Shown here: positions 3,261 to 52,198 of the stretch, one piece after another | Layout of the letters: each line of letters starts with the position of its first letter | Numbering within the stretch: the first letter of the stretch is position 1 | NCBI GenBank assembly: GCA_964496095.1 | Contig: CAZBWU010000003.1 | Location: 65,901 to 129,900 of the forward strand | Origin: an uncultured Gammaproteobacteria bacterium | GTDB taxonomy: Bacteria; Patescibacteriota; Patescibacteriia; Magasanikbacterales; GWA2-37-8 | Length of the DNA: 64,000 nucleotides | Reading direction: 5' to 3' | The notes under the pieces: generated by a model | Database searches by the model: none | Seen by the model: only the letters and a program-made list of their open reading frames with translations | Told to the model about the DNA's origin: nothing | Made by a program: the position numbers and the translations under genes

Positions 3261-3373
3261 TGTCATTCGAGCAAAGTGTAGAATCTCTGCCCATACAACC
3301 GCCATTCGCTCGACTTGACCGAAGACAACAACGAAAAACCGGACAGAGATCCTTCATTTCATTCAGGATGACA
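3261..3373. repeat. MITE-like palindromic element, family A
   Basis: tgtcattcgagcaaagtgtagaatctctgcc...ggacagagatccttc...caggatgacaa. It lies directly upstream of smpB and explains the spurious N-terminal extension of ORF 3260..3823. Confidence 0.7.
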
Positions 3374-3381
3374 AACAATAC

Positions 3382-3823
3382 TATGCCCCTTGCCCAAAAC
3401 AAAAAAGCCGAGTTTGAATATGAAATCCTAGAGAAATACGAGGCTGGTTTGGTATTATCAGGACAAGAGGTAAAATCCGCTAAACTTGGACAAATAAACT
3501 TAAAAGGCTCATACATAACTTTCCACGGTACCAATGCTTCCGTGTTAAATATGCATATTAATAAATACAAAGCTGTGGGTCCCCTACCTGACTATGACCC
3601 GACCCAATCCCGCCGAGTTCTTCTCCATAAAAAACAAATCGCCTATTTAAGGGCAAAATCTATGGAAAAGGGCTTGACAATTGTGCCTTTGCGAGTGTAT
3701 ACTAAGGGACGACTTCTAAAAATAGAAGTGGCTGTAGCTAGAGGAAAAAAACTTTACGACAAAAGAGAAACTCTAAAACAAAGAGATTCTAAAAGAGAAA
3801 TGGCTAGAGAAAGAAAGAATTAA
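3382..3823 (+). CDS. smpB: SsrA-binding protein SmpB
   Basis: MPLAQNKKAEFEYEILEKYEAGLVLSGQEVKS...LLHKKQIAYLRAK...EVAVARGKKLYDKRE. Typical SmpB length and motifs, and it is followed immediately by a tmRNA. Confidence 0.85.
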
Positions 3824-3832
3824 ATTATTTTT

Positions 3833-3911
3833 TGTCATTCTGAACAAAGTGAAGAATCCCTGTCTAAATTACCGAACGGACAGAGATCCTTCGTTACACT
3901 CAGGATGACAA
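3833..3911. repeat. MITE-like palindromic element, family A
   Basis: tgtcattctgaacaaagtgaagaatccctgtc...gacagagatccttcgttacactcaggatgacaa, between smpB and ssrA. Confidence 0.75.
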
Positions 3912-3926
3912 ACGTTTTTTTACAAA

Positions 3927-4323
3927 GGGGGTGCCGGGCTTTCGATAGAAGCTGCTGGCTACACTCGCATACCGAGGAAGCTCTGATCCTCGTTAATCAC
4001 AAAGGGCAACATAATAAGTGCAAACTTGTTATCAAAAGCTAAAGTTGCTTTCAGTAAAATGTTTACTGTCAACGCTTTCGCTCCGGTAATGGCTTAATAC
4101 CCATTTACCCATCACGCCGGCAACACCTAGTAGCCGAATCGTGGTGTCATTCACTAGGCGTAGTCATATAGGAGCGCCGGCTGTTATATGGCGAAGTTAC
4201 TCGGCTCGTCAATCCAATTTTCGTCCTCTTCTATTGGATTGATTAAAGAACAAGAGACACTAAGTATGTAGACGGTTTAGTCAAAGTTATCTAGACGCGA
4301 GTTCAACTCTCGCCACCTCCACA
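3927..4323 (+). ncRNA. ssrA: tmRNA (ssrA)
   Basis: Begins GGGGTGCCGGGCTTTCGATAG and ends with a tRNA-like T-arm and acceptor GACGCGAGTTCAACTCTCGCCACCTCCACA. An internal tag frame ends ...NAFAPVMA-TAA. Position directly downstream of smpB. Confidence 0.75.
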
Positions 4324-4429
4324 GAGAAATCCGGATTTACGGATAACTCAGATATACAGATGATAACGTCTGGACAAACGGTTCAAATCCGTAAATCTGG
4401 ATTATCTGCATATCCGGATAAATCTTAAT

Positions 4430-4975
4430 ATGAGAATATCCCACAAAAAACATAAACCAGAGCCAAAAAAAGTATTTTTCTATAACCAAGGTATTACTGT
4501 ACCAGAAGTTATGGTCTTGGCAAATGACGGCACAAATTTAGGTATCACAAAAACTCCCGACGCCTTAAAAATGGCTCGCGAGCAAGAACTTGATTTGGTT
4601 CTTATCAATCCTAAATCTTCTCCGCCAGTTGCTAAAATTATCGATTTTGGACAATTCCGTTACCAGCAAGAAAAAGAAGAGCGTCTCAAACAAGCTCACG
4701 CCCATGTGACAGAAGTAAAAGGTATCAGATTGTCCTTACGCATCTCTCCTCATGATATGGAGATAAGACAAAACCAAGCTATGCAATTTCTAAATGAAGG
4801 CGATAAAGTAAAAGTAGAAATAATTCTCAAAGGTAGAGAACAACAACAAAGACCAATGGCTGCAGCAGTGGTAGAAAAATTTGTCAGTAATGTTAATGCC
4901 ATTTTACCGGTACGCAAAGACCAAGAAGTAGAATTCCAATTTAACAAAGTGACAGCAATAATCGCTAAAAAGTAA
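4430..4975 (+). CDS. infC: translation initiation factor IF-3
   Basis: ...VMVLANDGTNLGI...ALKMAREQELDLVLINPKSSPPVAKIIDFGQFRYQQEK...GDKVKVEIILKGRE.... Conserved infC-rpmI-rplT order. Exact start uncertain, since IF-3 often uses a non-ATG start. Confidence 0.85.
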   Translation: MRISHKKHKPEPKKVFFYNQGITVPEVMVLANDGTNLGITKTPDALKMAREQELDLVLINPKSSPPVAKIIDFGQFRYQQEKEERLKQAHAHVTEVKGIRLSLRISPHDMEIRQNQAMQFLNEGDKVKVEIILKGREQQQRPMAAAVVEKFVSNVNAILPVRKDQEVEFQFNKVTAIIAKK

Positions 4976-4988
4976 ATTTAATAATAAC

Positions 4989-5060
4989 ACGAATGGGCTC
5001 GAGCCCCACAAATTACACAAATTTATTAGTGTCATTAGTGAGTCGAGAATCGACCATTCG
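4989..5060. repeat. palindromic repeat, second family (acgaatg...cattcg)
   Basis: acgaatgggctcgagcccc...gagtcgagaatcgaccattcg. Same termini and internal GC palindrome as the copy at 20531..20605. Confidence 0.55.
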
Positions 5061-5077
5061 CATTTATCCTAACTTAT

Positions 5078-5272
5078 ATGCCTAAAATGAAAACACACAA
5101 GGCCACAGCCAAAAGATACCAAGTCACTAAGACTGGTAAAATCATGAAACGTACAGCCGGACAAAACCATTTTAATTCCCGTGAAAACGGAAATACCGGT
5201 CGAAACAAAAAGTCAGACGTGGTCACAAGCCAAACCTTACGCCAAGCCATGAAAACTAACTTACCTTATTAA
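5078..5272 (+). CDS. rpmI: 50S ribosomal protein L35
   Basis: MPKMKTHKATAKRYQVTKTGKIMKR... matches the L35 N-terminus. Downstream of infC. Confidence 0.9.
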   Translation: MPKMKTHKATAKRYQVTKTGKIMKRTAGQNHFNSRENGNTGRNKKSDVVTSQTLRQAMKTNLPY

Positions 5273-5301
5273 AAGATTAATCCAGATAAATCTAAAATAA
5301 T

Positions 5302-5649
5302 ATGACACGTATCAAAGGTGGTTTACTCCACGCTAAACGCAGACGAGGCATTCTCAAACACACAAAAGGTTTCCGCTGGGGAAGAAAATCAAAAATCAAG
5401 TTAGCTAAACCAGCTAAAATGAAAGCTGGTCAATATGCTTTCAATGACCGCAAGATCAAGAAGCGCACCAGCCGAGGTTTGTGGAATATAAAAATCAACG
5501 CTGCTGTTCGCAACTTCCAAATGAGCTACAGCAAATTCATTGACGCTCTCAAGAAAAACAATATTGCTCTTGATAGAAAAGTCTTAGCCGACTTGGCTCA
5601 GAATCACGAAGCTATATTTGCTAAAATAGTTGATGCAGTGAAGAAATAA
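5302..5649 (+). CDS. rplT: 50S ribosomal protein L20
   Basis: MTRIKGGLLHAKRRRGILKHTKGF...KAGQYAFNDRKIKKR...LWNIKINAAVRN..SYSKFI matches L20. Confidence 0.9.
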   Translation: MTRIKGGLLHAKRRRGILKHTKGFRWGRKSKIKLAKPAKMKAGQYAFNDRKIKKRTSRGLWNIKINAAVRNFQMSYSKFIDALKKNNIALDRKVLADLAQNHEAIFAKIVDAVKK

Positions 5650-5729
5650 AACACTTCAGTCCACAGACAAACCCTTGAGCCTGCTAAATGTCGCTTTGCG
5701 ACAATCCCCAAGGGGATTATTTAATAGGC

Positions 5730-5855
5730 TTGACAAAAATCTAAAAATTAGTAGTATATAACTACCTCCAAGGCCCAGAGAATGCGTGGTATAAGGAGGA
5801 AACTTACCCTCCTTAGTTTCCTCTCCTCTTACCACGCACTATCTGGGTCTTTTTG
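5730..5855 (+). ncRNA. candidate small structured RNA with own promoter-like element (may also act as a convergent terminator)
   Basis: TTGACA at 5730 and a TAGTAT/TATATA -10 about 17-19 nt later. Then an approximately 85 nt extended hairpin (cccagagaatgcgtggta...taaggagg/cctcctta...taccacgcactatctggg) followed by a T-run. It sits between convergent genes and has no ORF. Confidence 0.3.
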
Positions 5856-5856
5856 T

Positions 5857-6129
5857 TTACAAATTTTTATAAATATCATGCTTACCAATAGAGATAAACA
5901 AAATATCGCCATTTTTTTGGCGCTCAAAAATAATACGATAATTACCAGTAATAGAAATTGACCATAACTCACTTAACTTTCCATGCAAGGCATGAAGGCG
6001 AAGGGATGGATGTAAAGGATTTTCTTTAAAAATTTTTTCTTTTCTCGCCGCTAAAACAAAGAGATCTTTTGGTAATTTTTTTAACTCCACCACAAATTTA
6101 GAAGAATACAAAATACTTGTGATAATCAT
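5857..6129 (-). CDS. type II toxin, RelE/ParE family
   Basis: 90 aa, ...HPSLRLHALHGKLSELWSISITGNYRIIF.... Its start overlaps the upstream small gene by 4 nt. Confidence 0.6.
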   Translation of the reverse strand: MIITSILYSSKFVVELKKLPKDLFVLAARKEKIFKENPLHPSLRLHALHGKLSELWSISITGNYRIIFERQKNGDILFISIGKHDIYKNL

Positions 6130-6353
6130 ACCAGATCAGCCAAAGAATTTGCTTTGATTGACTTGCCGGCTACATACTCCTTACGTGCGTCTCGCGCTGT
6201 TTTTAAAAGCTCAGTTTCAGAAATAAGCTCCTCATCGGCTTTAAACAAATACTTCACATAGGAGCTAACGGAATTATAGCCCCGTTTCTTCGCAAAGATT
6301 TTGATTTGTTTAAGATCGGAAGTAGGTAATGATAAGCTAGTAATTTGACGCAT
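6126..6353 (-). CDS. antitoxin of type II TA pair (RelB/ParD-like)
   Basis: 75 aa acidic/basic small protein immediately upstream of and overlapping the RelE-like gene. Classic TA gene order. Confidence 0.5.
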   Translation of the reverse strand: MRQITSLSLPTSDLKQIKIFAKKRGYNSVSSYVKYLFKADEELISETELLKTARDARKEYVAGKSIKANSLADLV

Positions 6354-6451
6354 AAATATACTGAAGTGAATTATAGAATATAGTGTAATACAGATGTACT
6401 ACAATGTCAAGAGTTAGAGAAATATGTTATCCAATGAAATCAACTACTATG

Positions 6452-7102
6452 CTAATCCACTATACCGCTTGGATTAAGTGTAATATCCCCACTCAAACCA
6501 TAAATACTGCTTTCTAAAACTGCTGATATTGTATACCTGATAGCACCATCGTACGTAGTATAAATGTAAGATTGATTAGGCAATGGATCTGATGGAATCA
6601 ATCCCATATATGGCATAGAGCATCCAAGTATTTTAAAACCATCATTATTTAAACAAGCAAAGTTGGCACTTCCTAAAACAGCGCCTGTGCCCGCTGGATA
6701 AACATTATGATCGGTATAATAAAGTTCTAAAGCTACTTGTAATTGCTTTAAATCTGAAAGGCGCCTATTATCACGTTCTTTTTGTTTTGTATTCTCAACA
6801 GCTACAGGATTTGGAGCGACCAATAATAGTTTAGCTTTTTTCAATGCTTCTTGGTAAGATTTATTAGCAGCCGCTATTTTGGCTCTACGTTCATCTTGCG
6901 CTTTTTTTATGGCTACGTTATAGGCTGTATTTCTAGCTTTTCGATCAGTTTCTTTTCTCTTTATCTCAGCCTTCTGCGCCTCAATTTTTTGTTTTGCTTG
7001 TAATTGAGTTTGCCCAACCGAGACGGAAGTAGCTTTGACCAAAGACGCGCTGGCGGAAAACATAACTACTGCCATCAGAAAAATTCCTACTATTTTTTTC
7101 AT
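6452..7102 (-). CDS. Sec-exported pilin-domain protein (type IV pilin paralog lacking the prepilin leader)
   Basis: The C-terminal 110 aa (RDNRRLSDLKQLQVALELYYTDHNVYP...SMPYMGLIPSDPLPNQSYIYT...ITLNPSGIVD) is about half identical to the pilin at 21484..21933. The N-terminus is a classical signal peptide (MKKIVGIFLMAVVMFSASASLV) followed by a K/A/E/R-rich helical stretch, not the G|FTLIE prepilin motif. Confidence 0.5.
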   Translation of the reverse strand: MKKIVGIFLMAVVMFSASASLVKATSVSVGQTQLQAKQKIEAQKAEIKRKETDRKARNTAYNVAIKKAQDERRAKIAAANKSYQEALKKAKLLLVAPNPVAVENTKQKERDNRRLSDLKQLQVALELYYTDHNVYPAGTGAVLGSANFACLNNDGFKILGCSMPYMGLIPSDPLPNQSYIYTTYDGAIRYTISAVLESSIYGLSGDITLNPSGIVD

Positions 7103-7220
7103 ATTCAAATGAGTGAGAGACAAAATTAAATATGGTTAATTTTGTCCGAGCGAGTGAGAATATATACGCTAAAGCAAATATATTTTGAATTATTTTAATT
7201 ATAATTTTTATGTTCTTGTA

Positions 7221-7547
7221 TTAATTTAATGAGTCCATCTCTGATGTAAGCTCTAATAATTTTTTATCTGAAATTTTTTTTCCCAATTCGAATGCATAGT
7301 CTTCTATACTAGAATCTAGTTTAATACCTGACATATCTATACCAGTTTTTTTATACACTTCCTGATTTAAAGGCCCTAAAATTGACCCGCCTAATTTATG
7401 GTCTACGGGATATTCTCTGGCCCGAATACTATCATAGGAACTAACCATGAATTCCTTTACTAATCTACCCAACAAGGCTAACTTGTCTAATTCTTCCTGA
7501 AATTTTTTCTCAAACGTAATTGATAGCTCTGACTTTTTTTCATTCAT
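7221..7547 (-). CDS. hypothetical protein (108 aa)
   Basis: Intact ORF. No motif recognised. Confidence 0.35.
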   Translation of the reverse strand: MNEKKSELSITFEKKFQEELDKLALLGRLVKEFMVSSYDSIRAREYPVDHKLGGSILGPLNQEVYKKTGIDMSGIKLDSSIEDYAFELGKKISDKKLLELTSEMDSLN

Positions 7548-8042
7548 ATAAACTTATGAGTTAACTTATACCAGCAAGTATACCAAAAAGCCCATAATTT
7601 ACAACATAACCTAGACATCACAAAAACTCCTATCATAAACATCTTTCAACCTTGCTTTGTCCATAACATGTAGTTCTAAAATCGCTCGGGTAAGCGCAAC
7701 ATTCAACAAATCTCGCTGCACCTTTTTAATTTCTGGGATTATCCAATATACAAACAACAAAAAAATTGGCTAACATAAGCCAACTAATTTTAGCGAGGAG
7801 TATGGGACGAAGTGGGAACCTGGGTGGCTAGGGTTAGCCAAATTTAATGATAAAGGATTGACAAAAGCTTAATTATATGATATTATTATTTGTTCTATTA
7901 GTTATTAACTAATAGACTTTGTTCCTTATACATCATGGTAGAAGATACTTTTTAAAGCAGGTACATCTTGCTTTACAGAACATCTTCTACCACACAACAA
8001 CAGGTGAGCGTCAATGACGCCACACCAAGGGAGAGAGATTCT

Positions 8043-8555
8043 ATGAAGAAGGAAAGTCTCTGGCTACTGCCGCTCGCGATCGCCATCGTCTTCTGGATCA
8101 CGGCGATGATCGTCGCTATCCACAACGATTATGTGGGACGGGCCATCCTCTACGGCACGATCTTCGTCCTCAACTTGATCATGCTCGTCGAGTACATGAT
8201 CAAGGTGGAGGTTGCGAAGCTGACCAAGAAGTACGACATCGGCTCTTCGTTCATCATGGTTCCCGTGACGAAGGCCGACACGGCCAGCTGCCCCGAGCAC
8301 GCCGCACAGATCAGCTACGATCGATACACGATTACGTTCCAGGGCTGTCTGGAGCACGGTGCCGATCTAGCGCTCTTCGTGAATGGCAATGCCAAGGAAG
8401 TGGCCGAGCACGCGCGCACCCTCACGGACGCAGGCTCCTTCCTGGATCAGGTCGCGAAGCGACAGCAGATCCCGACGGAGATCGTCGCGAGCCTGCGCGC
8501 CAAGCTGCCGGAGCTGTTCCCCCAGCAACCAGACCCCGACGGCGGCGTACACTGA
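8043..8555 (+). CDS. hypothetical membrane protein encoded by a GC-rich (foreign-composition) cassette
   Basis: Start MKKESLWLL follows aagggagagagattct (SD-like). Two TM helices, then a soluble domain. Codons are G/C-ending throughout, unlike all flanking genes. Opposite-strand ORFs here are treated as GC artefacts. Confidence 0.5.
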   Translation: MKKESLWLLPLAIAIVFWITAMIVAIHNDYVGRAILYGTIFVLNLIMLVEYMIKVEVAKLTKKYDIGSSFIMVPVTKADTASCPEHAAQISYDRYTITFQGCLEHGADLALFVNGNAKEVAEHARTLTDAGSFLDQVAKRQQIPTEIVASLRAKLPELFPQQPDPDGGVH

Positions 8556-8676
8556 ACAACTCGAAGCTCCCAACAACATTCCTATGGAGTAAGGATCAGG
8601 AGGCCTTCACGTAGCTTTATATATAATATAGATTTTGTATACATAGCTACGAAGGTCTCTGAAAAAAATTTATTTA

Positions 8677-8711
8677 AAAAACAACCTTTCTAACAGAAGG
8701 TTGTTTTTTGT
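8677..8711 (+). terminator. rho-independent terminator
   Basis: aaaaacaacctttctaacagaaggttgttttttg, a perfect stem plus a T-run downstream of the GC-rich gene. Confidence 0.6.
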
Positions 8712-8716
8712 TTAAC

Positions 8717-8790
8717 CTGACGGATGTGGTGACCGTCCGTCTACGCAAATTATGGCCATTTTTATATAATTTTTGGTCACAACGTGGACA
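8717..8790. repeat. island boundary element, copy 1 (tgtggtgacYgtccg ... tatggccat ... tttggtcacaaNNtggNcacaatt)
   Basis: About 70% identical to 13948..14030 and to a shorter copy at 10491..10568. Contains a tandem TGGNCACAA direct repeat. Confidence 0.55.
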
Positions 8791-9097
8791 CAATTTTATA
8801 TGTCTAGCCAGTACAAAAAAATAGCGACTGAATTTACAGAATTATCTATATATGATATAGTTATTTTGTCTTTGACAATTGAGCCTAACAGCCGCAGCAC
8901 AGGGTGCAATCCCCTGGGTAATAGTTGGAGTATTTTTCTCTACTGCTCTGAATTATTCATCTTATTTTGAATTTATTATGGAAAATAAAAAAACTTTAAA
9001 TTTAAGAAAACTATCCTTTAAAATGAACTTAAAATTAAGTACCAAAATAATTACCGTGGCAGGCCAACTGCTGTAAGGCTAAATTGTTAAGATTAAA

Positions 9098-9129
9098 ATA
9101 AAAGACAGGGTTTTAAACCCTGTCTTTTT
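9098..9129 (-). terminator. rho-independent terminator (bidirectional hairpin)
   Basis: aaaagacagggttttaaaccctgtcttttt, just downstream of the minus-strand gene ending at 9161. Confidence 0.6.
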
Positions 9130-9160
9130 GAATTTTTATATTCAAGCTATATATATAATT

Positions 9161-9508
9161 TTACAGCAAACTTTCAATACTTACATGCTTTGCTTTAAAA
9201 CTATAAGCCTTTTCTTCTGGTATTGCTCTGTTTGCAGCAACTACCCGAAACATGTCTCTTATCTCATTATTTGTGTTAATAAAAGAAACTTCTTTCTTAT
9301 TCCAAGTTTTTCTCTGTAAATCTTCTTTTAAACGAAGCATGGCGTGAGCTGCAGAACGAGAAATAAATTCTACATCCTCAAAATCTAAATTAACCGTTTT
9401 TGAATCGGTTTTTAAAATTAGCTTTTCTAAATTCTCTATTAAATCTCGAGAGCTTATAATAGGGGCTAAAATGCTAATTAATTTTAAGTTTGCAATTGTT
9501 TCTTTCAT
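9161..9508 (-). CDS. STAS-like small protein (DUF4325-type)
   Basis: 115 aa with ...VNLDFEDVEFISRSAAHAML..., the hallmark of the STAS-like DUF4325 family. Immediately downstream of a GHKL ATPase gene. Confidence 0.5.
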   Translation of the reverse strand: MKETIANLKLISILAPIISSRDLIENLEKLILKTDSKTVNLDFEDVEFISRSAAHAMLRLKEDLQRKTWNKKEVSFINTNNEIRDMFRVVAANRAIPEEKAYSFKAKHVSIESLL

Positions 9509-9536
9509 ATGTATTTATTATACCTGACCAATCATT

Positions 9537-10388
9537 TTATTCCAAATATGGACTGATGTCAATAGTACCTTTTGGCTTCATAATTCTATAAGCGATAATA
9601 ACTCCATGCCATGAAAAATCTCCTAATTTTACTATTTTTTCTTCTTTATTATCCGCAATCAAAGCAGATGATCCGGAAATAATCATAAAAGATCCTCCCA
9701 GAGCTTCACAGACCACTCTTTTTGAAGTCCGAACTCCATAACCTCTTTCCTTATCTTTTTTAGTAGAATGTCCATCCATTGCTTGAATTATAGCCTCATC
9801 ATCAGAAATTTTTAGATTCTTCTCGTCAGCATATGTTGCCGCCAAACCTTTTCCTGTATCTACAATACACATATCTAGATACTCTTTATTTGGATAATAC
9901 TGCCCAAAGATATACCCTTTACTCTCTTTACTATGCTCAAAAATATTAGTTACTAACTCACTTATAGGATAATAGATAGCATTTCGTGCACCTAGAGTTG
10001 CCCCTACTACTTTATAAATCATCTGACTAAATAAAGACTCTAGTCTTTCTCTTTCTGCACCTGCTTCACGCCGTAAAACACTAATGGGAACATAGGTTTT
10101 TCCTTGCTGAACTTCTGCTTCCAAATCAGACACACTATTTACACCATCAGGAAATTTTATCGTATTGGCATATGATTTTGTGGCGTGATTTTCGTTATTC
10201 ACTGTACTGTTAGTTTTATGGATATAAGCACTAATTGGAAGAGAAATTAGAGGGCACAAAAATTTAATCTGAGACACGTCAAATTCAATTTTCTCACCCC
10301 ATTCAATACCTTTAAGAGTATTATAAAGTGAAACAAAAGAGCTAATTAATTTATCATTTTTAGGCGCAGGTACTATGATTTTTCTCAT
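9537..10388 (-). CDS. histidine-kinase-like (GHKL) ATPase
   Basis: N-box ...ISELVTNIFEHS..., G1 ...VDTGKG..., G2 ...ERGYGVRT.... No receiver, HisKA or DNA-binding domain. Confidence 0.55.
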   Translation of the reverse strand: MRKIIVPAPKNDKLISSFVSLYNTLKGIEWGEKIEFDVSQIKFLCPLISLPISAYIHKTNSTVNNENHATKSYANTIKFPDGVNSVSDLEAEVQQGKTYVPISVLRREAGAERERLESLFSQMIYKVVGATLGARNAIYYPISELVTNIFEHSKESKGYIFGQYYPNKEYLDMCIVDTGKGLAATYADEKNLKISDDEAIIQAMDGHSTKKDKERGYGVRTSKRVVCEALGGSFMIISGSSALIADNKEEKIVKLGDFSWHGVIIAYRIMKPKGTIDISPYLE

Positions 10389-10490
10389 AAAATAAGGCAG
10401 GTCAAAATTCTAAATAACTTATCAATTTTAAATTTACTACATTTTATTGTACTTAAACAATGATAAAAAAGCAATTTAAAATTTTCTAAA

Positions 10491-10568
10491 CAGGTATCGA
10501 GGCTGTCTGAATATCAAAAATATGGCCATAATAGGCAAGAAGTTTGATCACAAAGTGGGCACAAGTTT
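10491..10568. repeat. island boundary element, copy 2 (shorter)
   Basis: gaggctgtctgaatatcaaaaatatggccataataggcaagaagtttgatcacaaagtgggcacaagtttt aligns with copies at 8717 and 13948. Confidence 0.45.
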
Positions 10569-10589
10569 TAAATTTGTAATCTCAAAATA

Positions 10590-10636
10590 AAAAGATGCAA
10601 ATCACTAACGTGGACTTCACTGGTTCGATCCCAGCC
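10590..10636 (+). tRNA. tRNA 3' fragment (pseudo-tRNA: T-arm, acceptor 3' strand and CCA only)
   Basis: ...cactggTTCGATCccagccctcgaagCCA has a T-loop consensus and terminal CCA, but no complementary 5' acceptor strand (ttcgagg) upstream. Followed by a hairpin and T-run. Confidence 0.35.
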
Positions 10637-10707
10637 CTCGAAGCCAAGATAAAATAAAAAAGCCCTACTTTTGAAAGGCTTTTTTATTTATATATATATT
10701 ATGAACC

Positions 10708-11097
10708 TTATTTTTTATAATGTAAATAAATAAGGCTAGAAATTTTTGTAAGGTTAACGATAATTATGGTGGCTAGCAACCACCAGTCTATATGATGTGT
10801 CACAAAAATCTGATAAATCAATCCGCCAGAAATAAATATTGTCGCTGCTATGGTTGCGACTCGGTTGGAAAGGTTCCGATGCATAACCTCTCTCTCATCC
10901 TCACTTTTTATCTCTCCCGCCAAGGATATTAAAACTGAGTATAAAACCAAAAAAGTGCAGATAGAAATAATTGCCGGCATAGACATTTCATTCATTGGCT
11001 CAAACAGTAAATAACCAGTGACCAGGGCAATGAGTGCCAGAAGTAAAATATAGTAGATCAAAATTTTGAGACGCGGCATAAAAAATAAATTAAACAA
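10708..11097 (-). CDS. small 4-TM membrane protein (partner of upstream XRE regulator)
   Basis: 129 aa with four hydrophobic helices. Directly downstream of a short HTH gene, as in known HTH plus small membrane protein pairs. Confidence 0.4.
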   Translation of the reverse strand: MFNLFFMPRLKILIYYILLLALIALVTGYLLFEPMNEMSMPAIISICTFLVLYSVLISLAGEIKSEDEREVMHRNLSNRVATIAATIFISGGLIYQIFVTHHIDWWLLATIIIVNLTKISSLIYLHYKK

Positions 11098-11293
11098 TTA
11101 ATTAATAGTAAATATTTTTTCCACCGGCAGATCAAAAAATTTAGCTACTTTTAAAGCCAGCCCCAAAGATGGTTCGTAATTGCCTTTTTCCATAGCAATA
11201 ATTGTCTGGCGGGAAACTTTAAGCGCGCTGGCAAATTCTTCCTGCGTAGCGCCTTGAGTTTCCCGCAATTGTTTTATTTTATTTTTAATCATG
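11098..11293 (-). CDS. XRE-family helix-turn-helix transcriptional regulator
   Basis: [61 protein letters not shown] is a canonical Cro/C1-type HTH, 65 aa. The longer ORF upstream of this ATG overlaps the preceding gene. Confidence 0.7.
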
Positions 11294-11296
11294 TAT

Positions 11297-12958
11297 TTAT
11301 CCAAAAGTAAATGTATATACTTCAAGGCCTGGAGCTGGAATCTCAATAATAATTTCATGCGACGTATAACTTGTGGAATCAAATAAAGTATACAGATCCG
11401 AGCCGGAAATAGTGACCGGCTTTTGTTTTTGGCCATCAACCGTAATTTGTACAGTTATCGGTTGTTTGGCCTCAGCTACCATATGGATTTTACCAGCAAA
11501 AAAATTCATTTTTATTTTACCCGCACCTTTACTTAACTGAACAACCTCTGGAGTAAAGTTCCAAGTACCCTGTAGCGCAAAGTGATTGCTCTCCAATTGT
11601 CTTGGTAAGTAGTATTCATTTTCAGATTTATCTGGAGATTGAGACTTAGTTAAATATTCTAATCTGTTAGTACCAAAATAAATTTCTGGAGTGCCAATAT
11701 TTTGATTTGTTTCTACTTCTGCTTTGGTAACTGTTTTATTCATCCCCAAAAGTTCGGCAATGGCATTTTCGGTTTCTTCGTATTTACCTTCGCCAAAATG
11801 ATAATAACGTATATTACCATCACGATCAATAAGATAGTGAGCAGGCCAGTAATTATTATTAAAATTATTCCAGGTGCCAAAGTTATTATCCAAAGCGACT
11901 GGATAATTAATCCCATGTCGTTTAACCGCAGTTTTTACATTATCCAATACTTTTTCAAATTCAAATTCTGGTGTATGTACACCAATAACTACAAAACCCT
12001 GATCTTTGAATTTTTCATACCAGGACGTTACGTACGGTAATGTACGAATACAATTAATACAAGAATATGTCCAAAAATCTACCAGCACCACCTTACCTTT
12101 CAGATCGTTCATTGTCAGATTTTTATCTGTGTTAATCCAAGCTTTAATATTTTTAAAATCAGGCGCCTGCCCATAGTCGGGAAGGTCAACCGCAGTATTT
12201 TTGATATTGGTTTCTTGATTAATTATAGGCAAGACATTTAATTGTGGTTTTATTAATTTTTGTTCGAGCGTCGGGAAGCTGTAGTAATCCAATAGTTTCG
12301 CTTGCAACTTGAGATCATATTGAAAGTACATAGCCACTGCCAATAGCAAAATAATGGCACCAAATATTTTTTGAATACTATTAGCATATTTTGCGACAGA
12401 TCGTACTTTGGTAGTGATAGCTTGTCCCCCATAGGAAATAGCCAACATCGGCACACCGGCACCAACAGCGTAGGCAATGAGCATAGGAATTGCTTGTCCA
12501 AAGTTTGATTGAGTAGCAATAAGAGTAAGGATACTCCCCAAGATTGGCCCAGCACACGGGGTCCAGATAAGACCCAAAATCATACCCAAGACAAAACCAC
12601 CAAAATTTTTATTGCCTGCTTTTTGACTTATATTTTGGGCTTTGGTGGAAAATCCGGATAATCGTTGCGCTAATATTTCAAACAGTTTTGGAAAAAGCAT
12701 AAGCAACCCAAAAATTGCCAAACCAGCCACGGCAATATTGCGCAATAAGTCTGGCGCAATCATTAATTTTTGGACAATAAGAGACAAAGTCAATCCAGCT
12801 ATGGAAAACGTCGTAATAAATCCAAGTGTAATAAAGATTGGCCTGGTTTTACTAGTATGACCAACCGATACCCCCAAAATAATTGGGAGCATCGGCAGGA
12901 TGCAGGGCGCGCCAATTGTGAGCACGCCCGCGAGAAAAGAGAAAATAATTTGCAACAT
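11297..12958 (-). CDS. DipZ-like fusion: CcdA/DsbD-type membrane thiol-disulfide transporter, TlpA/ResA-like thioredoxin domain and a C-terminal domain
   Basis: TM1 ...[10 protein letters not shown]... and TM4 ...[11 protein letters not shown]... are the CcdA cysteines. The periplasmic ...[19 protein letters not shown]... is a thioredoxin CxxC. This is the Mycobacterium DipZ architecture. Confidence 0.7.
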
Positions 12959-12959
12959 T

Positions 12960-13607
12960 TTATTTTAAATTACTGATTAATTCGGCAATGCCACCACCAT
13001 TCCATCTACTAATTTGGTTGCCGTTAGCATCAACCTGTATAAATGTATGTTGGTAAGTAACCCCATATTTTGTTTTCAGCTCTTTTTCAGTATCGTAGTT
13101 AGTTTTAAGTACCGTTACATTTTTAGGAATTTGACTGGTATGATCCAGAAAGTCTGCATTGGCTTCCTTACAATTCGGACACCATGAAGCCCAAAAGAAT
13201 AACACTGCTTTGCCATCATTTTTGGTGGCTTCAGCGAGTGCCGCAGGAGAGTAGTCCTTATACATTCCCACTGTGTTTGCAGTCATCATTTTTTCCTTTT
13301 CCATAGCCGCTTCTTTTTCGGCCATCATTTTTTCTTCTGGAGTCATTATCTTTTCTTTTTCCATCATCGCCGCTTTTTCTTTGTCCTCCATTTTTTGTTT
13401 TTCCATCGCTACTTGTTCAGATTCCATTTTCTCTTTCTCCATCATGGCGGTCTTTTTCTGCGATTCGGTCATGGCGTCTTCTTTTTTTATCATATTTGCA
13501 GACTGATCAGCCGAATTCTTTGTTTGGTTAGTATTAGCACAACCGGCTCCGGCAATAGCTATTACTCCCAATAACATAGTCACGCCGACGACTAACTTGT
13601 ATTGCAT
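12960..13607 (-). CDS. lipoprotein thioredoxin with N-terminal Met-rich repeat region
   Basis: Lipobox ...AIAGAGC.... About seven M-E-K-E-K-M-type repeats, mirrored by imperfect tandem DNA repeats at about 13290-13450. C-terminal thioredoxin ...VLFFWASWCPNCK.... Confidence 0.6.
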   Translation of the reverse strand: MQYKLVVGVTMLLGVIAIAGAGCANTNQTKNSADQSANMIKKEDAMTESQKKTAMMEKEKMESEQVAMEKQKMEDKEKAAMMEKEKIMTPEEKMMAEKEAAMEKEKMMTANTVGMYKDYSPAALAEATKNDGKAVLFFWASWCPNCKEANADFLDHTSQIPKNVTVLKTNYDTEKELKTKYGVTYQHTFIQVDANGNQISRWNGGGIAELISNLK

Positions 13608-13947
13608 AAGATTTTAAATTATCACCCAATTTAAATAAAGGGCTGATTTATATTAATTTTTTGTCTAGAGCAAAAAATTAAATTTATTTATTACTTAATT
13701 GTAAAGTAATAAAAAAGTAATGTCAAGTCTACTTTACATTGTTTATATCCTTACATGTTGATAACTTTACATCAATACTAATATTAGCTCTATTTTTATA
13801 GCAATTTTTCAGGTATCAAAAAACTCAGCGTGTGTTCCATTGTACAAATCACTAATATATCCAAGTAACTTGCAGAATACTAAAATTAAAAAAGCTTTTC
13901 TTAATGAAGGGTTTTTATAATTAAAAGTTTTAAATAAGTATCTGTAC

Positions 13948-14030
13948 AGGCTGTGGTGACTGTCCGAAGGTGTGAAATATCGCCATAATCCCCTCTTTTT
14001 TTGGTCACAAAATGGTCACAATTTACAAAA
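13948..14030. repeat. island boundary element, copy 3
   Basis: ggctgtggtgactgtccg...aaatatcgccataat...tttttggtcacaaaatggtcacaattt. About 105 bp from the 3' end of tRNA-Asp. Confidence 0.55.
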
Positions 14031-14135
14031 TGTGACCGCCGTACCAAGTTTAAAATAACAAAAGTTGTAGGCTCGATTTCCGCTCTACTAAAACAAAAAA
14101 ACACCATTGTGTAGTGTAATATTTGTTTCTAGCTA

Positions 14136-14212
14136 TGGCGGGTCGGACGGGACTCGAACCCGCAACTTCTGCCGTGACAGGGCAGTGCTCTAACCAGTTG
14201 AACTACCGACCC
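14136..14212 (-). tRNA. tRNA-Asp (GTC), CCA encoded
   Basis: Reverse complement GGGTCGGTAGTTCAACTGGTTAGAGCACTGCCCTGTCACGGCAGAAGTTGCGGGTTCGAGTCCCGTCCGACCCGCCA. Cloverleaf fits with anticodon loop CUGUCAC, and it closely resembles E. coli tRNA-Asp. Confidence 0.9.
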
Positions 14213-14337: not shown

Positions 14338-14595
14338 ATGATGAAAAAAGAGGATGCCCGAAAGTGGCTACTGGTCACAGTGAAGCTCGCGGGTGGACCG
14401 TCAAGGTGCACCAAGAGAACAGTACTAAACGGTAAAGTACTGGCAACCATCAAGGGCTTCGCCTACAACAATTTCGGTGACGAACTCACCCTCGAGGAGT
14501 CGACTACATTCGGAAAGCTCCTCAAAATCATAAAGGGAAACATCTCCAGAATGAAGCCCTACAGGGCAGTTATTCTCCAGAAAAAGGAGTCGTAA
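14338..14595 (+). CDS. hypothetical small protein (85 aa), first gene of a GC-rich two-gene cassette
   Basis: G/C-rich codon usage unlike the host genes. Promoter upstream. Its stop overlaps the next start (TAAATG), suggesting coupled translation. Confidence 0.45.
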   Translation: MMKKEDARKWLLVTVKLAGGPSRCTKRTVLNGKVLATIKGFAYNNFGDELTLEESTTFGKLLKIIKGNISRMKPYRAVILQKKES

Positions 14596-14898
14596 ATGCC
14601 AGGCCCAATCTGGATCATGATCCTCGCGATCCCCAACTGCTTCTTCTCGCCACCAGTCAAGATGGATCTGGGAAACCTGACATTCCTGGTCGGTTCCAGA
14701 TTCAACGTGATGGAAGATCACATTGACCCTGTCGGCAACCTGAAGTTCAATCTTTCCTGGTTGCTCAAGGGCCTGGGCAGTGACGCAGAGAAAACACTGC
14801 GCGAACTGCTCGACACCTGGGAAGTGGACATGGATCAAATCACGATCACGATCCCATGGGGATGCTACGAACCAGCGACCCGAGACAAGAACGACTAG
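14596..14898 (+). CDS. hypothetical small protein (100 aa), second gene of the GC-rich cassette
   Basis: Same composition as the first gene. Followed at about 15064 by a strong terminator. A 165 aa antisense ORF (14425..14922) is considered a GC artefact. Confidence 0.45.
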   Translation: MPGPIWIMILAIPNCFFSPPVKMDLGNLTFLVGSRFNVMEDHIDPVGNLKFNLSWLLKGLGSDAEKTLRELLDTWEVDMDQITITIPWGCYEPATRDKND

Positions 14899-15063
14899 AT
14901 CAGAGAGAAGGCCTGACAGCAACGGTGCTCTGCAGAGGAGGTCAACCTCAAGACAAGGGACATCAACCTCGTTCGCAACACCTGATTTGTTTCTAAAAAA
15001 TTGGAAGCAGATCAGGAGGGCGACCGCGAACGAGATTTGTTTGTTCCTAAACTTTCTTAAAAT

Positions 15064-27354: not shown

Positions 27355-28284
27355 CTAATCCATCCACTTCTTAATCTTAAATACCGAGAGCATCAGCATC
27401 GCGCCGATAAAAATAATAATAGAAATAATTGCAAATCCAAAAGGATTATCTATAAATGGTGTTCCCCCAGCATGAATGGCAAAAATAGTAGCTACGAGTG
27501 TCAAAGGAAAAGTGATTACCGAGATAATAGTAAGAGTCTTCATAATCTCATTCATCCGCAAACCAACCACCGACTCATTGGTTTCATCGAGAGCATCGGC
27601 GCTTTCTTTTTGGCTTTCTAGGGTATGCCAAATTTCAGCTACATGATCACGAGCGGTGTTTATATACAGTTGATAAGATTGTAGATCTAATTCCCTACCA
27701 CCACGACTGATTAAATGATCTAAAACTGTTTTATGACCTTGCATGGCTCGGCGGAAATTTACTACATTCATTTTCAATCTCAAAATCTCTTCGGCCATTT
27801 TTCTATCCGGAATTTTGACAAACAAAATTTTATCAATAGAATTCGTGTCGTCGTTCACATGTAACAAAATCGGAAAGATGGACTCCAACATACGATTGAG
27901 GAGTTCAAAAAATATATGAGCCGAAGTGCCATTAAAATATTTTTCTCTAAGCTCCGATTTCTTTTGGCAACTATTAAAAAACTCTTCTATAACAGCCAAA
28001 CTGCCATTATGTACGGTAATTAAACTACTGCTATTTAAGAAAAAATCCACTTCCGCAAAGCCTAAACGCCTAGTTTTACGGTCAAAAACCGGAAAATGTA
28101 AGACCAAAAAATAATAATTGTCGCGTTTGACAAACTTAGGACGCTGGAACGAAGGCAGGCTTTCTGAAATTTCTTGATCAGTAAATTGAAACCTTTTCTG
28201 CAAAGCGCGCAAAACCTTTTCTTCAGATTGGGTGACATTAACCCAGAGCAAACCATTATTTTGAATTTCGTTTAAATTTTTCAT
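27355..28284 (-). CDS. CorA-like divalent cation transporter family protein (GMN motif not conserved)
   Basis: Cytoplasmic N-domain plus two C-terminal TMs. The sequence before the last TM is ...TIFAIHAGGTPF instead of YGMNF. Start taken at MKNLNEI, because the longer ORF runs into a MITE. Confidence 0.5.
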   Translation of the reverse strand: MKNLNEIQNNGLLWVNVTQSEEKVLRALQKRFQFTDQEISESLPSFQRPKFVKRDNYYFLVLHFPVFDRKTRRLGFAEVDFFLNSSSLITVHNGSLAVIEEFFNSCQKKSELREKYFNGTSAHIFFELLNRMLESIFPILLHVNDDTNSIDKILFVKIPDRKMAEEILRLKMNVVNFRRAMQGHKTVLDHLISRGGRELDLQSYQLYINTARDHVAEIWHTLESQKESADALDETNESVVGLRMNEIMKTLTIISVITFPLTLVATIFAIHAGGTPFIDNPFGFAIISIIIFIGAMLMLSVFKIKKWMD

Positions 28285-28293
28285 AATTCTTTT

Positions 28294-28448
28294 TGTCATC
28301 CTGAACGTAGTGAAGAATCTCTGTCGGCTGTTCGTTGTCATCCCCGACCTGATCGGGGATCCAGCGTACAATTAAATTGCCTGGATTCCCGCTGTTGCGG
28401 GAATGACAATTGTTTGGGCAGGGATTCTTCGCCTTGCTCAGAATGACA
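28294..28448. repeat. nested MITE cluster: family A element carrying a family B element inside
   Basis: Outer tgtcatcctgaacgtagtgaagaatctctgtc...gggattcttcgccttgctcagaatgaca. Inner ttgtcatccccgacctgatcggggatccag...ctggattcccgctgttgcgggaatgacaa. Confidence 0.7.
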
Positions 28449-28536
28449 GTTGATAAAATCCTAAATAACAATGTAAATACATTATAGCACATTGTTGAAG
28501 AAGCTAAAATATGTTATCATACTTTATATCCATCTT

Positions 28537-34146: not shown

Positions 34147-34155
34147 TCTTTCGCC

Positions 34156-34267
34156 TGTCATTCTGAACGAAGTGAAGAATCTCTGTCCGTACAATGTCAT
34201 TCCCGCCAAAGCGGGAATCCAGACAATTCGAACGTACCCTGGATTCCCAATCAAGTTGGGAATGACA
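34156..34267. repeat. MITE composite: family A half-element plus complete family B element, abutting tRNA-Gln
   Basis: tgtcattctgaacgaagtgaagaatctctgtccg then tgtcattcccgccaaagcgggaatccag...ctggattcccaatcaagttgggaatgacaa. Confidence 0.7.
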
Positions 34268-34274
34268 AAAACAT

Positions 34275-37086: not shown

Positions 37087-37332
37087 ATGTCGCAGGTGCA
37101 TGGCAAAGTCGAACTCCCGTGCAATTACTTCAAACACCCAAACAAAGGAGCTAATAACGGCTGTACCGGCATCTTCGTTGAAGTGGGCGGAGAAAACGGC
37201 TCTACCGTTCGCACCCGTCTACGATGCAACCACGCCGGTTGTCAGCGCGTCATCCACATCGACGTTGCAGAGCTTCTGCAGATCTACCAGCACGAGCGCC
37301 AAAAACGCTACAAGCCTAGCAAAAAAGACTAG
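37087..37332 (+). CDS. hypothetical small Cys4 protein (81 aa) in a GC-rich cassette
   Basis: Strong SD (agggggggcaacgatcATG). G/C-rich codons. Four Cys (C12, C26, C47, C52) may form a zinc-ribbon. Confidence 0.4.
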   Translation: MSQVHGKVELPCNYFKHPNKGANNGCTGIFVEVGGENGSTVRTRLRCNHAGCQRVIHIDVAELLQIYQHERQKRYKPSKKD

Positions 37333-37469
37333 GCTAGCTGCAAATATCTGGGGAGTCTCTTAGAGTTTGGCGGTCACTCTTTAAAAACCGTCAGCCTTTC
37401 TATTTGTTGAATATCCACACCTACCATTTGACATCTTAAACTAACGTGATAGTCTAACTATACAATTCA

Positions 37470-37645
37470 ATATGTATCTGTGGAAATGAGGTTAGATTCC
37501 TCTACTGTGCCGCAACGGTAAACCAAGTTTAACTTAAACTTGGAAGTCCGGTCTTCAGATATACAACTTCACGAGCGAAGTTGCGTCCCGAGCAGGAAAA
37601 TATTCTTATATTTTTTAATCTTTCCTGCCCGGTAAAGATTTTTTT
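37470..37645 (+). promoter_or_regulatory. candidate cobalamin (AdoCbl-type) riboswitch with terminator expression platform
   Basis: GGAAAUGAGGUUAGAUUCCUCUACUGUGCCGCAACGGUAAA resembles the conserved GGGAA...GGUGAAAAUCC...GCUGUCCCGCAACUGUAA core of Rfam RF00174 as recalled. The downstream AGCAGGAAA...UUUCCUGCCCGG stem plus U-run ends 6 nt before the DUF4430 gene. Confidence 0.5.
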
Positions 37646-45470: not shown

Positions 45471-45797
45471 ATGCTTACCGATGAGAGTCTAGAACCACAA
45501 GGAGAGAAAGAGCCGCTAAGGCTCGTTGAGTTTCACACTCCGTGTGAACGAAGTCGTACGCTGTCAGGACCGATAGTCCTGACTGCACAAGGTCTGAACG
45601 GCAGGCGTAAAGCTGTTCAGGATGCAATGTCGAACATCCAAGACGCTGCACGAACTTCTGTGGCCTACGCTCACTGGCAAGTGGTCGCCTACAAGCTCAC
45701 AGAGGAAGAGGGCGCCATCTTCATCGTTCCCCAAAATGGGGCCATCCATGACGGTCAAAGCACCACGAGAATTCGGGTGATCAAGTACCAACGGTGA
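45471..45797 (+). CDS. hypothetical protein (108 aa) in a GC-rich cassette
   Basis: SD taaggagaaccaacATG, G/C-rich codons, followed by a GC-rich terminator. Antisense ORF 45564..45791 regarded as a GC artefact. Confidence 0.4.
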   Translation: MLTDESLEPQGEKEPLRLVEFHTPCERSRTLSGPIVLTAQGLNGRRKAVQDAMSNIQDAARTSVAYAHWQVVAYKLTEEEGAIFIVPQNGAIHDGQSTTRIRVIKYQR

Positions 45798-45830
45798 ACC
45801 ACAACATCCACAAGTTCGGAGGCATGCAAC

Positions 45831-45866
45831 CCCGCCCGGCTCAACGAGCCGGGCGTTTGATTTTAT
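45831..45866. terminator. rho-independent terminator (GC-rich stem)
   Basis: cccgcccggctcaacgagccgggcgtttgatttta. It overlaps the last 4 codons of the minus-strand gene 45841..46236. Confidence 0.6.
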
Positions 45867-46236: not shown

Positions 46237-46239
46237 ATT

Positions 46240-47071: not shown

Positions 47072-47083
47072 AAAAAACAATCC

Positions 47084-52123: not shown

Positions 52124-52198
52124 TGTCATTCCCAACTTAATTGGGAATCCAGTGTCGAATTAAATTGTCTGGATTCCCGCTTTTGGCGGGAATGACAA
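52124..52198. repeat. MITE-like palindromic element, family B
   Basis: tgtcattcccaacttaattgggaatccagtgtcgaattaaattgtctggattcccgcttttggcgggaatgacaa. Confidence 0.7.

Follow-up and report, generated by a model that had tools for sequence, protein, structure and literature searches.

A putatively replaceable GC-rich one-gene unit at a tRNA-Asp recombination hotspot in an AT-rich bacterial chromosome

The c1 gene and its expression signals

The DNA analyzed here, referred to as the window, is a stretch of 64,000 nucleotides (nt) of contig CAZBWU010000003.1, and represents ordinary chromosome encoding transfer-messenger RNA (tmRNA), infC-rpmI-rplT, phosphoenolpyruvate (PEP) synthase, LigA, type IV pilus genes, CysS, SecDF and SecA. 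The subject of this study is an open reading frame (ORF) on its + strand, designated c1 (8043-8555), which encodes an orphan protein of 170 amino acids (aa). The overall GC content of the window is 0.382, and its strongest GC excursion is found at approximately 7996-8610, where the GC content in 300-nt intervals rises from 0.33 to 0.55-0.61 and then returns to 0.29-0.33. The composition is thus not uniform, and the abrupt switch to G and C that the original prediction had described at about 8040-8590, amid A/T-rich genes, is borne out by this profile and by codon usage. The total GC content of c1 is 0.598 (0.59, 0.37 and 0.84 at the first, second and third codon positions, i.e., GC1, GC2 and GC3), while the GC3 of 28 long ORFs of the window is 0.327 (standard deviation 0.038, maximum 0.40), which places c1 at z-scores of 13.5 for GC3 and 8.1 for total GC. 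A measure resembling the codon adaptation index, built from the window's own genes, is 0.40 for c1 compared to 0.707 (standard deviation 0.028) for window genes.

The gene is framed by its own expression signals, all on the + strand. A sigma-70-type promoter (TTGACA-17 nt-TATTAT, with TG before the -10 element) is predicted at 7858-7886 from a match to 11 of 12 consensus positions, and the predicted transcript start coincides with a perfect palindrome with 11-nt arms (7894-7916), which is operator-like or forms the first hairpin of the leader. The leader of approximately 150 nt also contains a stem-loop at 7936-7992, earlier reported as a 60-nt inverted repeat upstream of the start, whose 24-nt arms (7936-7959 and 7969-7992) are 83% complementary. 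The predicted fold of positions 7890-8060 has a free energy of -56.7 kcal/mol (z=-7.45 against shuffled sequence), and in this fold UUCCUU pairs with the region of the Shine-Dalgarno (SD) sequence AAGGGAG, which was located by reading the sequence at 8027-8033, 9 nt before the ATG. The hairpin of the c1 leader was not found in the leader on contig L004, one of the comparator contigs used below (L002, L004, L065, L070, L071, L072 and L074), which carries the c1 orthologue termed L004a.

Downstream of the ORF, the GC-to-AT transition bears the 10-mer GATCAGGAGG (8594-8603), which is found again in L004 and at 15010, the 3' end of a second GC-rich unit (cassette 2, see below). A conserved 3' stem-loop of 67 nt (8596-8662), with 15 pairs, a bulge of 2 nt and an apical part rich in A and T, is followed by an intrinsic terminator (8676-8709) consisting of a perfect 13-bp stem and a T run; the predicted fold of the 3' region (8556-8810) has a z-score of -6.16. 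This module of stem-loop and terminator is 85% identical to that of L004 over 116 nt (E=7e-18). All stem-loop pairs are kept in these two sequences, which offer no usable covariation, and the single L004 difference in the terminator stem changes an A-U pair to G-U. When the stem-loop arms (CAGGAGGCCTTC...GAAGGTCTC) were scanned against 185,579 species genomes, the pattern proved too GC-rich and returned chance matches in GC-rich genomes only, while a 23-mer of mixed AT and GC content had no matches in JGI metagenomes or IMG/VR. Rfam returned no match for the GC-rich segment.

Runs SRR10036081 and SRR10036080 each yielded a Logan contig with 100% identity to the window, over positions 3345-14172 and 3983-9354, respectively, and each contig covers both GC junctions, with the reservation that these runs may share a study with the window's own contig. 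The strong three-nucleotide periodicity, the two hydrophobic segments of the product, its homologue P0001 and a ratio of nonsynonymous to synonymous substitutions (dN/dS) of 0.52 together indicate a protein-coding gene. A GC-rich, self-contained gene is therefore present in this A/T-rich genome, and positions 7858-8712 constitute a real autonomous one-gene unit with a putative promoter of its own. As the original prediction had it, the unit encodes a protein with two transmembrane (TM) segments and has its own SD and terminator.

Hydropathy places the hydrophobic segments of the protein at approximately residues 6-26 and 31-53, i.e., as two N-terminal TM helices, which precede a C-terminal domain of approximately 110 aa with four strands and two helices. 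Basic residues before TM1 and after TM2 point to an N-in, C-in topology, by which, following the positive-inside rule, the C-terminal domain would be cytoplasmic. In the AlphaFold2 (AF2) model (predicted local distance difference test, pLDDT, 65), a two-helix hairpin is followed by a disordered linker and then by four strands and two helices; Foldseek searches with this model returned best E-values of 0.03 (BFVD) and 0.13 (PDB), neither of which is significant. Word-indexed and exhaustive HMMER searches of a collection of approximately 15 billion proteins identified P0001 as the sole homologue (170 aa, E=2e-17, 33-35% identity), with the same architecture as c1. Comparison of c1 with L004a yields a dS of at least 1.07, and the c1 product is a lineage-restricted, fast-evolving protein with a dN/dS of about 0.5.

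The protein had no match in Pfam, NCBIfam, PHROGs, PADLOC or the PDB sequences; tblastn against 50,697 phage records returned no match, and IMG/VR contained no relative of c1. A bPH/DUF304-like architecture (two TM segments plus a beta domain), which was considered as a candidate, found no Pfam support, and a holin was rejected based on the length of the protein, which is too long, and on the lack of lysis genes nearby. The 108-aa ORF to the left of c1 has a single distant homologue, whose context is uninformative, and, as with c1, no match in PHROGs, while a pilin-like ORF further left gave two weak PHROG matches only (E=0.006 and 0.02).

Turnover of the slot beside tRNA-Asp

Synteny with L065 (82-92% nt identity) stops at approximately 5870, just past rplT, while L071 and L070 (72-86% identity) possess the interval from rplT to the PEP synthase gene with a different gene content; c1 is consequently located in a variable region of approximately 9 kb. 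A relative whose L20 is at least 90% identical derives, by its record name, from a 0.1-µm groundwater fraction, which in combination with the gene content would point to a Patescibacteria-like organism. An accessory array extends leftwards to c1 from the 3' end (14136) of tRNA-Asp(GTC) (14136-14212, - strand), the putative integration target, and c1 was correctly placed at the edge of this region, adjoining the first copy (8772) of a repeated boundary element.

The box of the boundary element occurs in three + strand copies, at 8772, 10543 and 14000, where 0.11 would be expected by chance. Copy 1 (8719-8793) combines a hairpin or degenerate remnant of the tRNA-Asp 3' end (8719-8741) with the box TTTGGTCACAACGTGGACACAA (8772-8793). 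In copy 2 (10490-10646) the box (10543-10564) is followed by the 3' fragment of another tRNA, which ends in CCA (10590-10646), and in copy 3 (13940-14021) the box (14000-14021) lies 115 nt from the tRNA-Asp 3' end. The right half of the element harbours a direct-repeat pair with 11-nt spacing (TTTGGTCACAAnnTGGnCACAA), while its left half aligns with the reversed tRNA-Asp 3' end. At the equivalent place, tRNA-Asp 3' fragments are present in L071 (7862-7884, one mismatch) and L004 (874-896, three mismatches); the window's 8719-8741 is a degenerate remnant only, with no match at three or fewer mismatches. Judged by its layout, the boundary element thus resembles an attachment-site (att) remnant, in which a degenerate tRNA-Asp 3' end would be joined to paired GGTCACAA repeats.

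The relatives display this arrangement in more intact form. For example, intact tRNA-Asp and a second, partial 3' copy bracket 3.9 kb in L071, with a box approximately 110 nt inside each end, an arrangement that is typical of attL and attR together with their arm-type sites. In L072 the box is located 115 nt from tRNA-Asp, as in the window, and is abutted by the genes for a 365-aa tyrosine integrase (Phage_integrase) and a helix-turn-helix protein (HTH_17) that is Xis-like. No integrase gene was found at 5870-14136 among the window proteins scanned and the precomputed domains of 3.3-14.2 kb and, given the integrase at the tRNA/box junction of L072, the window appears to hold remnants or integrase-less islands. 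The c1 gene borders, on its outer side, a series of stacked island remnants that lack an integrase and adjoin the tRNA-Asp 3' end, and the three boundary copies are interpreted as scars which successive integrations at tRNA-Asp left at their junctions. Window positions 10390-14013 (3.6 kb), between box copies 2 and 3, are absent from L071; the cargo of this island consists of a membrane protein, a 64-aa helix-turn-helix protein, a DsbD-thioredoxin fusion and a thioredoxin. A pattern search with the box returned 18 metagenome loci, most of which carry unrelated iteron-like GGTCACAATTT repeats; in unrelated metagenome loci, box-like repeats lie beside tyrosine integrases with arm-binding domains (L050 and L063) or 80 nt after a tRNA 3' end (L048).

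The left border of the variable slot is formed by a conserved 29-nt element (GAGTATGGGACGAAGTGGGAAC...; 7797-7825), which is single-copy in the window and in each relative, and which is 96.6% identical to L071 8599-8571, a contig that is only 72-86% identical elsewhere. The element is GC-richer and is situated between two hairpins. Between this element and the att remnant, the relatives L002 and L071, as well as L004, each carry a different GC-rich gene. L002 represents a strain that is 99.0% identical to the window over 8771-11001, with identity decaying through boundary copy 1. To the left of this copy it carries a GC-rich (0.61) AIR-synthase (AIRS)/PurM-like gene, which is reversed in orientation, is preceded by a TTGACC-17-TTAAAT promoter of its own and has a GC1 of 0.64. 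The breakpoint in L002 falls inside the boundary element, whose left half is closer to copy 3 than to copy 1. In L071, the space between the 29-nt element and the tRNA-Asp fragment with its box is occupied by an unrelated GC-rich ORF (8043-8369 in L071 numbering; GC3 0.80 for a 141-aa call), which is inverted relative to c1 and has its own promoter and terminator. L071 furthermore carries a GC-rich orphan in the slot of cassette 2, and another, of 285 aa, inside its island. In L004, which is known from 1.3 kb alone, the c1 orthologue (GC3 0.68, compared to 0.84 for c1) is followed by the stem-loop, the terminator, the tRNA-Asp fragment, the box and a second GC-rich ORF. In the window as well as in L004 and L071, the GC-rich ORF is found beyond the outermost remnant of the tRNA and its box, and may represent the displaced original flank of the tRNA.

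The c1/L004a pair, with 33% identical proteins in 85% identical flanks, is no proof of a swap. Since the intergenic DNA of this lineage is better preserved than its synonymous sites (it is still 85-95% identical where dS is about 0.6), the pair could equally well have arisen by vertical descent, with the protein evolving fast.

Arrays of islands anchored at tRNA genes, which arise by tandem accretion of integrative elements and integrase-less remnants, are known from cis-mobilizable elements (CIMEs) next to integrative and conjugative elements (ICEs) and from the tycheposon islands of Prochlorococcus (bioRxiv 10.1101/2020.12.28.424599). The array described here resembles them in its anchorage at a tRNA 3' end, its repeated att-like junctions in one orientation, the partial tRNA copy at the far end (L071), the intact integrase element (L072) and a content that varies between close relatives. 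It differs in that c1 lies just outside the outermost att remnant and not clearly inside an element, that the array of this genome is without an integrase in the region scanned, and that GC-rich cassettes 3 and 4 (see below) are located away from any tRNA. The cargo, moreover, exceeds the host in GC content, in contrast to most island DNA, which has a lower GC content.

Further features were observed in this region. A long hairpin downstream of rplT (5766-5856) is 94-96% identical in L065 and L071, exceeding the adjacent ribosomal protein genes, and immediately precedes the point where synteny with L065 is lost. The accessory region opens with a HigB-like toxin that is paired with a 75-aa antitoxin (5857-6353, - strand). 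HigB-type toxins cut A-rich codons, which are largely missing from c1; a connection between the two is an idea only. To the right of c1, a HATPase-like protein of 283 aa (9537-10388, - strand) is paired with a STAS-like protein (9161-9508, - strand) in an arrangement of the partner-switching type, and shows a weak match (E=1e-6) to the N-terminal part of DrmA of DISARM. The pair is kept in L002, L070 and L071, directly beside att sites, and in L071 tRNA-Asp abuts it in the absence of island 10390-14013. The interval between boundary copy 1 and the STAS gene (8800-9130, + strand) contains a promoter-like site (8833-8861), a hydrophobic ORF of 65 aa (8879-9076) and, before the STAS gene, a bidirectional terminator (9100-9128); its L002 copy has a long-range complementary pair (GCCTAACAGC…GCTGTTAGGC), of which the far arm in the window is not displayed, and the interval may encode a small membrane protein or an RNA. 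The tRNA 3' fragment at 10590-10646 (+ strand; …GGTTCGATCCCAGCCCTCGAAGCCA), which is not of the Asp type, has an encoded CCA followed by a terminator, and L002 carries an identical copy; the fragment may have been left behind by an element once integrated in another tRNA, or may be a small tRNA-like transcript from box copy 2. Finally, families of repeats of 32-74 nt that resemble repetitive extragenic palindromes (REP) or miniature inverted-repeat transposable elements (MITE) (TGTCATTCTGAACGAAGTGAAGAATC… and TGTCATTCCCAAC…GGGAATCCAG…) are scattered in intergenic regions, with copies at 3833, 23600, 28294 and 34156, and inverted partners at 3335-3385, 28282-28449, 34155-34268 and 52124-52185.

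Sister GC-rich units in the window

Three more GC-rich units on the + strand, which had been announced at 14338, 37087 and 45471, are indeed present, with GC3 values of 0.53-0.72 (z-scores 5.3-10.3). Cassette 2 (14338-14898) consists of two ORFs of 85 aa (2a, 14338-14595, GC3 0.63) and 100 aa (2b, 14596-14898, GC3 0.72). Cassette 3 (37087-37332, GC3 0.63) is a cysteine-rich ORF of 81 aa between folD and an adenosylcobalamin (AdoCbl) riboswitch, and cassette 4 (45471-45797, GC3 0.53) is an ORF of 108 aa. The match to the AdoCbl riboswitch (37457-37608, + strand; E=2e-8) scored 49.8 bits against a gathering score of 50 and was missed by the default Rfam run; it precedes a DUF4430 gene, and its conservation in L074 is 98-100%.

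The units differ in how they compare with their counterparts in relatives. Cassette 2 is kept in L072, where 2a shows 59% aa identity (dN 0.30, dS 0.79) and 2b a dN of 0.08 and a dS of 0.17, compared to a dS of 0.52-0.68 and a dN/dS of 0.03-0.13 for housekeeping genes. Cassette 3 and its L074 counterpart (window 37087-37440, L074 9394-9800) are 47% identical in nt and 46% in aa sequence, with saturated dS, while the flanks are 92-100% identical (dS 0.18 for folD and 0.30 for the DUF4430 gene). The cysteines are conserved, both alleles are GC-rich, and the left border falls at the folD stop codon. As point mutation at the local neutral rate cannot give this pattern, either allele replacement or local hypermutation would be needed. 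Cassette 4, together with four small genes, occupies the slot between DUF1653 and SecA (45471-47656), which in L074 (17637-19155) holds a restriction-modification system composed of an N6/N4 methyltransferase and a Tsp45I-type restriction enzyme.

The shared composition had been proposed to reflect a common foreign source or a common insertion mechanism. When the junctions of the four cassettes were compared by blastn-short and k-mer analysis, no shared motif was found; the occurrence of GATCAGGAGG at the 3' ends of cassettes 1 (c1) and 2 is marginal, with a probability of about 0.03, by our own estimate, for any shared 10-mer, and TATACTCTAG is common to cassettes 2 and 3 alone. A 3' motif resembling CAACA(A/C)CATTC was seen by eye in some units, and nothing is claimed for it. 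A common foreign source was likewise not shown, as no homologue from a GC-rich genome was found among the approximately 15 billion proteins and the only homologue occurs in the same AT-rich frame elsewhere. Because they are found at the same positions in relatives, cassettes 2 and 3 would be old residents or exchanged alleles and not fresh imports. What the units have in common is their behaviour: they are orphans of atypical codon usage, with slot content that varies (cassettes 1 and 4) or divergence far above that of the flanks (cassettes 2a and 3).

All five GC-rich ORFs of the window (8043, 14338, 14596, 37087 and 45471) are on the + strand, and the GC skew is negative across the 64 kb, so that the lagging strand probably encodes these ORFs and their transcription would run head-on into replication. 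In L071, GC-rich ORFs are found on both strands relative to the window.

Such genes are also poorly represented among annotated proteins. The protein collection searched above lists an antisense ORF of 97 aa (8064-8357, - strand) in place of c1; this ORF is probably spurious, and the 170-, 183- and 195-aa sense products are missing. Cassettes 2b (14596-14898) and 3 (37087-37332) are also uncalled, and thus three of the five GC-rich ORFs of the window are absent from the 15 billion proteins. These calls indicate that protein databases under-sample GC-rich mini-genes, which in AT-rich genomes are systematically mis-annotated, i.e., called on the wrong strand or not at all.

Exchange, residence and origin

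The description that fits c1 best is that of an accessory mini-gene which is open to replacement and lies at a recombination hotspot. The explanation that we favour, and hold with moderate confidence, is that GC-rich orphan mini-genes form a shared pool that circulates among related AT-rich genomes, each unit being exchanged complete from promoter to terminator through recombination in the conserved flanks, their ultimate origin being an unsampled GC-rich gene pool. The type IV pilus genes would make DNA uptake the likely route. The leader would gate translation by masking the SD, as the predicted fold suggests, and the protein would probably serve a strain-specific membrane function at the interface with phages, competitors or host cells. 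With respect to cassette 3, the alignment with L074 appears to demonstrate unit-wise replacement, provided that it is not read as the hypermutation named above.

Two known types of variable DNA are instructive for comparison. Replacement-type flexible genomic islands carry very divergent alleles between conserved flanks, which are thought to be upheld by frequency-dependent selection. The present slots, of which cassette 3 and the cassette 1 slot are the best examples, share with them conserved flanks, highly divergent or non-homologous content and sharp borders, but they hold single mini-genes of 80-170 codons instead of multi-gene surface-polysaccharide clusters, and the alleles seen here are all GC-rich orphans. 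Phage morons are extra genes of atypical composition, with their own promoter and terminator, inserted between resident genes. The anatomy of c1, a single ORF of odd composition with its own strong promoter and terminator, is that of a moron, while its position is chromosomal and intergenic, in the absence of a prophage context.

Several points weigh against circulation from a GC-rich pool. No homologue of c1 was found in any GC-rich genome among the approximately 15 billion proteins, nor in phage and plasmid records, and no recombinase was seen in the window among the part of its proteins that was scanned. The reading of the box repeats as integrase-binding sites derives from their layout alone, the function of the protein is one that we infer throughout, and the AF2 model is of moderate quality and lacks a fold match. 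Informative comparator contigs for the c1 slot number four. In addition, L004a shares the AT-rich 3' frame of c1 and is still GC-rich at a dS of at least 1.07, which is a poor fit to import followed by drift. A simple recent import from a GC-rich genome fits the PurM-like gene, whose amino-acid make-up is of the GC-rich type, but is not demonstrated for c1, given the lack of a donor among these proteins, the relative in an AT-rich frame and the GC-richness that accompanies this dS. According to a rough two-state estimate of our own (equilibrium GC3 of 0.33, approximately 0.5 substitutions per synonymous site per branch), an initial GC3 of 0.9 would have dropped to about 0.55, while 0.84 and 0.68 are observed; subject to the divergence assumed, the excess hints at maintenance or a shorter residence time. 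Selection on GC or codon choice, GC-biased conversion and repeated capture are all retained as candidate processes, and all fail to explain the AT-rich immediate flanks. Taken together, the original description was right and its suggestion of a foreign source or common mechanism is partly supported, while the pattern is more unusual than a single event of horizontal gene transfer (HGT).

A possible, though clearly less probable, alternative is that these are resident accessory genes, old in the lineage, whose high GC3 is upheld by selection or by GC-biased gene conversion (gBGC) at recombination hotspots. Such selection might concern the use of rare codons to control a membrane protein that is potentially toxic, the structure or stability of the mRNA, or the avoidance of A/U-specific RNases, of which the HigB-type toxin nearby is an example. 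Residence accounts for the fact that c1 and L004a are alike GC-rich despite their dS, that cassettes 2 and 3 are GC-rich in each of the two genomes compared, and that the databases lack a GC-rich donor; the slots are, furthermore, evident recombination hotspots, and gBGC has been found to lift GC3 in recombining bacterial genes (PMC4450053). However, the AT-rich flanks beside the ORFs (GC 0.25-0.35) are not enriched, as would be expected of gBGC tracts, and GC1 and amino-acid make-up are shifted as well, also in the PurM-like gene (GC1 0.64), which resembles descent from a GC-rich genome. There is also no direct evidence for a selective agent.

A more far-reaching reading, which we consider doubtful, is that this groundwater, Patescibacteria-like lineage harbours an undescribed class of mobile single-gene units that combine GC-rich ORFs with AT-rich signals, replace one another precisely in their slots and possess a dedicated upkeep of GC content. 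Such upkeep could be provided by a cassette-exchange machinery, GC-biased diversification, or repeated capture from GC-rich partners of these presumed symbionts.

It is unlikely that the units represent an integron-like, site-specific cassette system, in which single genes are captured or exchanged at the 3' stem-loop or an att-like element by a recombinase encoded elsewhere. Integron gene cassettes are likewise single-gene units at a variable fixed position, and such a system would explain the sharp borders of the variable segments (that of cassette 3 lies at the folD stop), the imperfect hairpin, with bulged bases, that is conserved immediately 3' of the ORF between the window and L004, the two tandem GC-rich ORFs in L004 with the 3' module between them, and the L002 breakpoint inside the boundary element, with a left half more like copy 3 than copy 1. 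Yet sharp borders are also produced by homologous exchange in highly conserved flanks, and each unit has its own promoter and terminator (TTGACA-17-TATTAT in c1), where integron cassettes are promoterless. The units are scattered, their cargo is present in either orientation (L002 and L071), and cassettes 1-4 have no site in common. The attC cores RYYYAAC...GTTRRRY are not evident in the 3' hairpin (8596-8662) as read, with arms GAGGCCTTCACGTAGCT and AGCTACGAAGGTCTC, and within the 64 kb of genome visible no IntI-type integrase was detected among the window proteins scanned or the precomputed domains of 3.3-14.2 kb.

Local, G/C-biased hypermutation in place, caused by head-on conflict between transcription and replication or by a hypothetical targeted mutator, is very unlikely. 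The nt identity of cassette 3 (47%), which is at random level inside flanks of 92-100% identity, could be explained in this way, and the location of all five GC-rich ORFs of the window on the + strand, probably the lagging strand given the negative GC skew, is in agreement with it. The dS of cassette 2a is normal, however (0.79 versus 0.52-0.68 in its neighbours), that of 2b is low (0.17), and the GC-rich ORFs of L071 occupy both strands. Acceleration driven by such conflicts has a far smaller effect in published work, and a diversity-generating retroelement finds no counterpart in the 64 kb visible: no part of 7996-8610 is repeated in the window as a template, and the window proteins scanned include no reverse transcriptase. 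An artefact, whether a chimeric assembly with DNA of a GC-rich organism or a GC-rich non-coding RNA misread as an ORF, would account for the abrupt GC switch and the absence of the ORF from public gene calls but is extremely improbable in view of the identical structure in three assemblies, the promoter, SD and terminator that frame the GC-rich part exactly, the GC-rich ORFs in an equivalent frame in three other contigs, the coding periodicity (0.59/0.37/0.84), the homologue at E=2e-17, a dN/dS below 1 and the lack of an Rfam match.

The locus bears on how small genomes of this kind are read. No description of GC-rich mini-genes in genomes of the Candidate Phyla Radiation (CPR) was found in the literature. 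For inference of HGT, composition alone would indicate a recent import, while the comparative data indicate persistence or exchange within AT-rich relatives, and a GC3 of 0.6-0.84 that lasts in a genome with a GC3 of 0.33 offers a test case for selection versus GC-biased conversion versus repeated capture. The GC-rich units are natural candidates for functions that face phages, competitors or hosts and distinguish strains from one another. If the pattern is lineage-wide, small AT-rich genomes of the symbiont type would keep a hidden layer of strain-specific, quickly replaced mini-genes.

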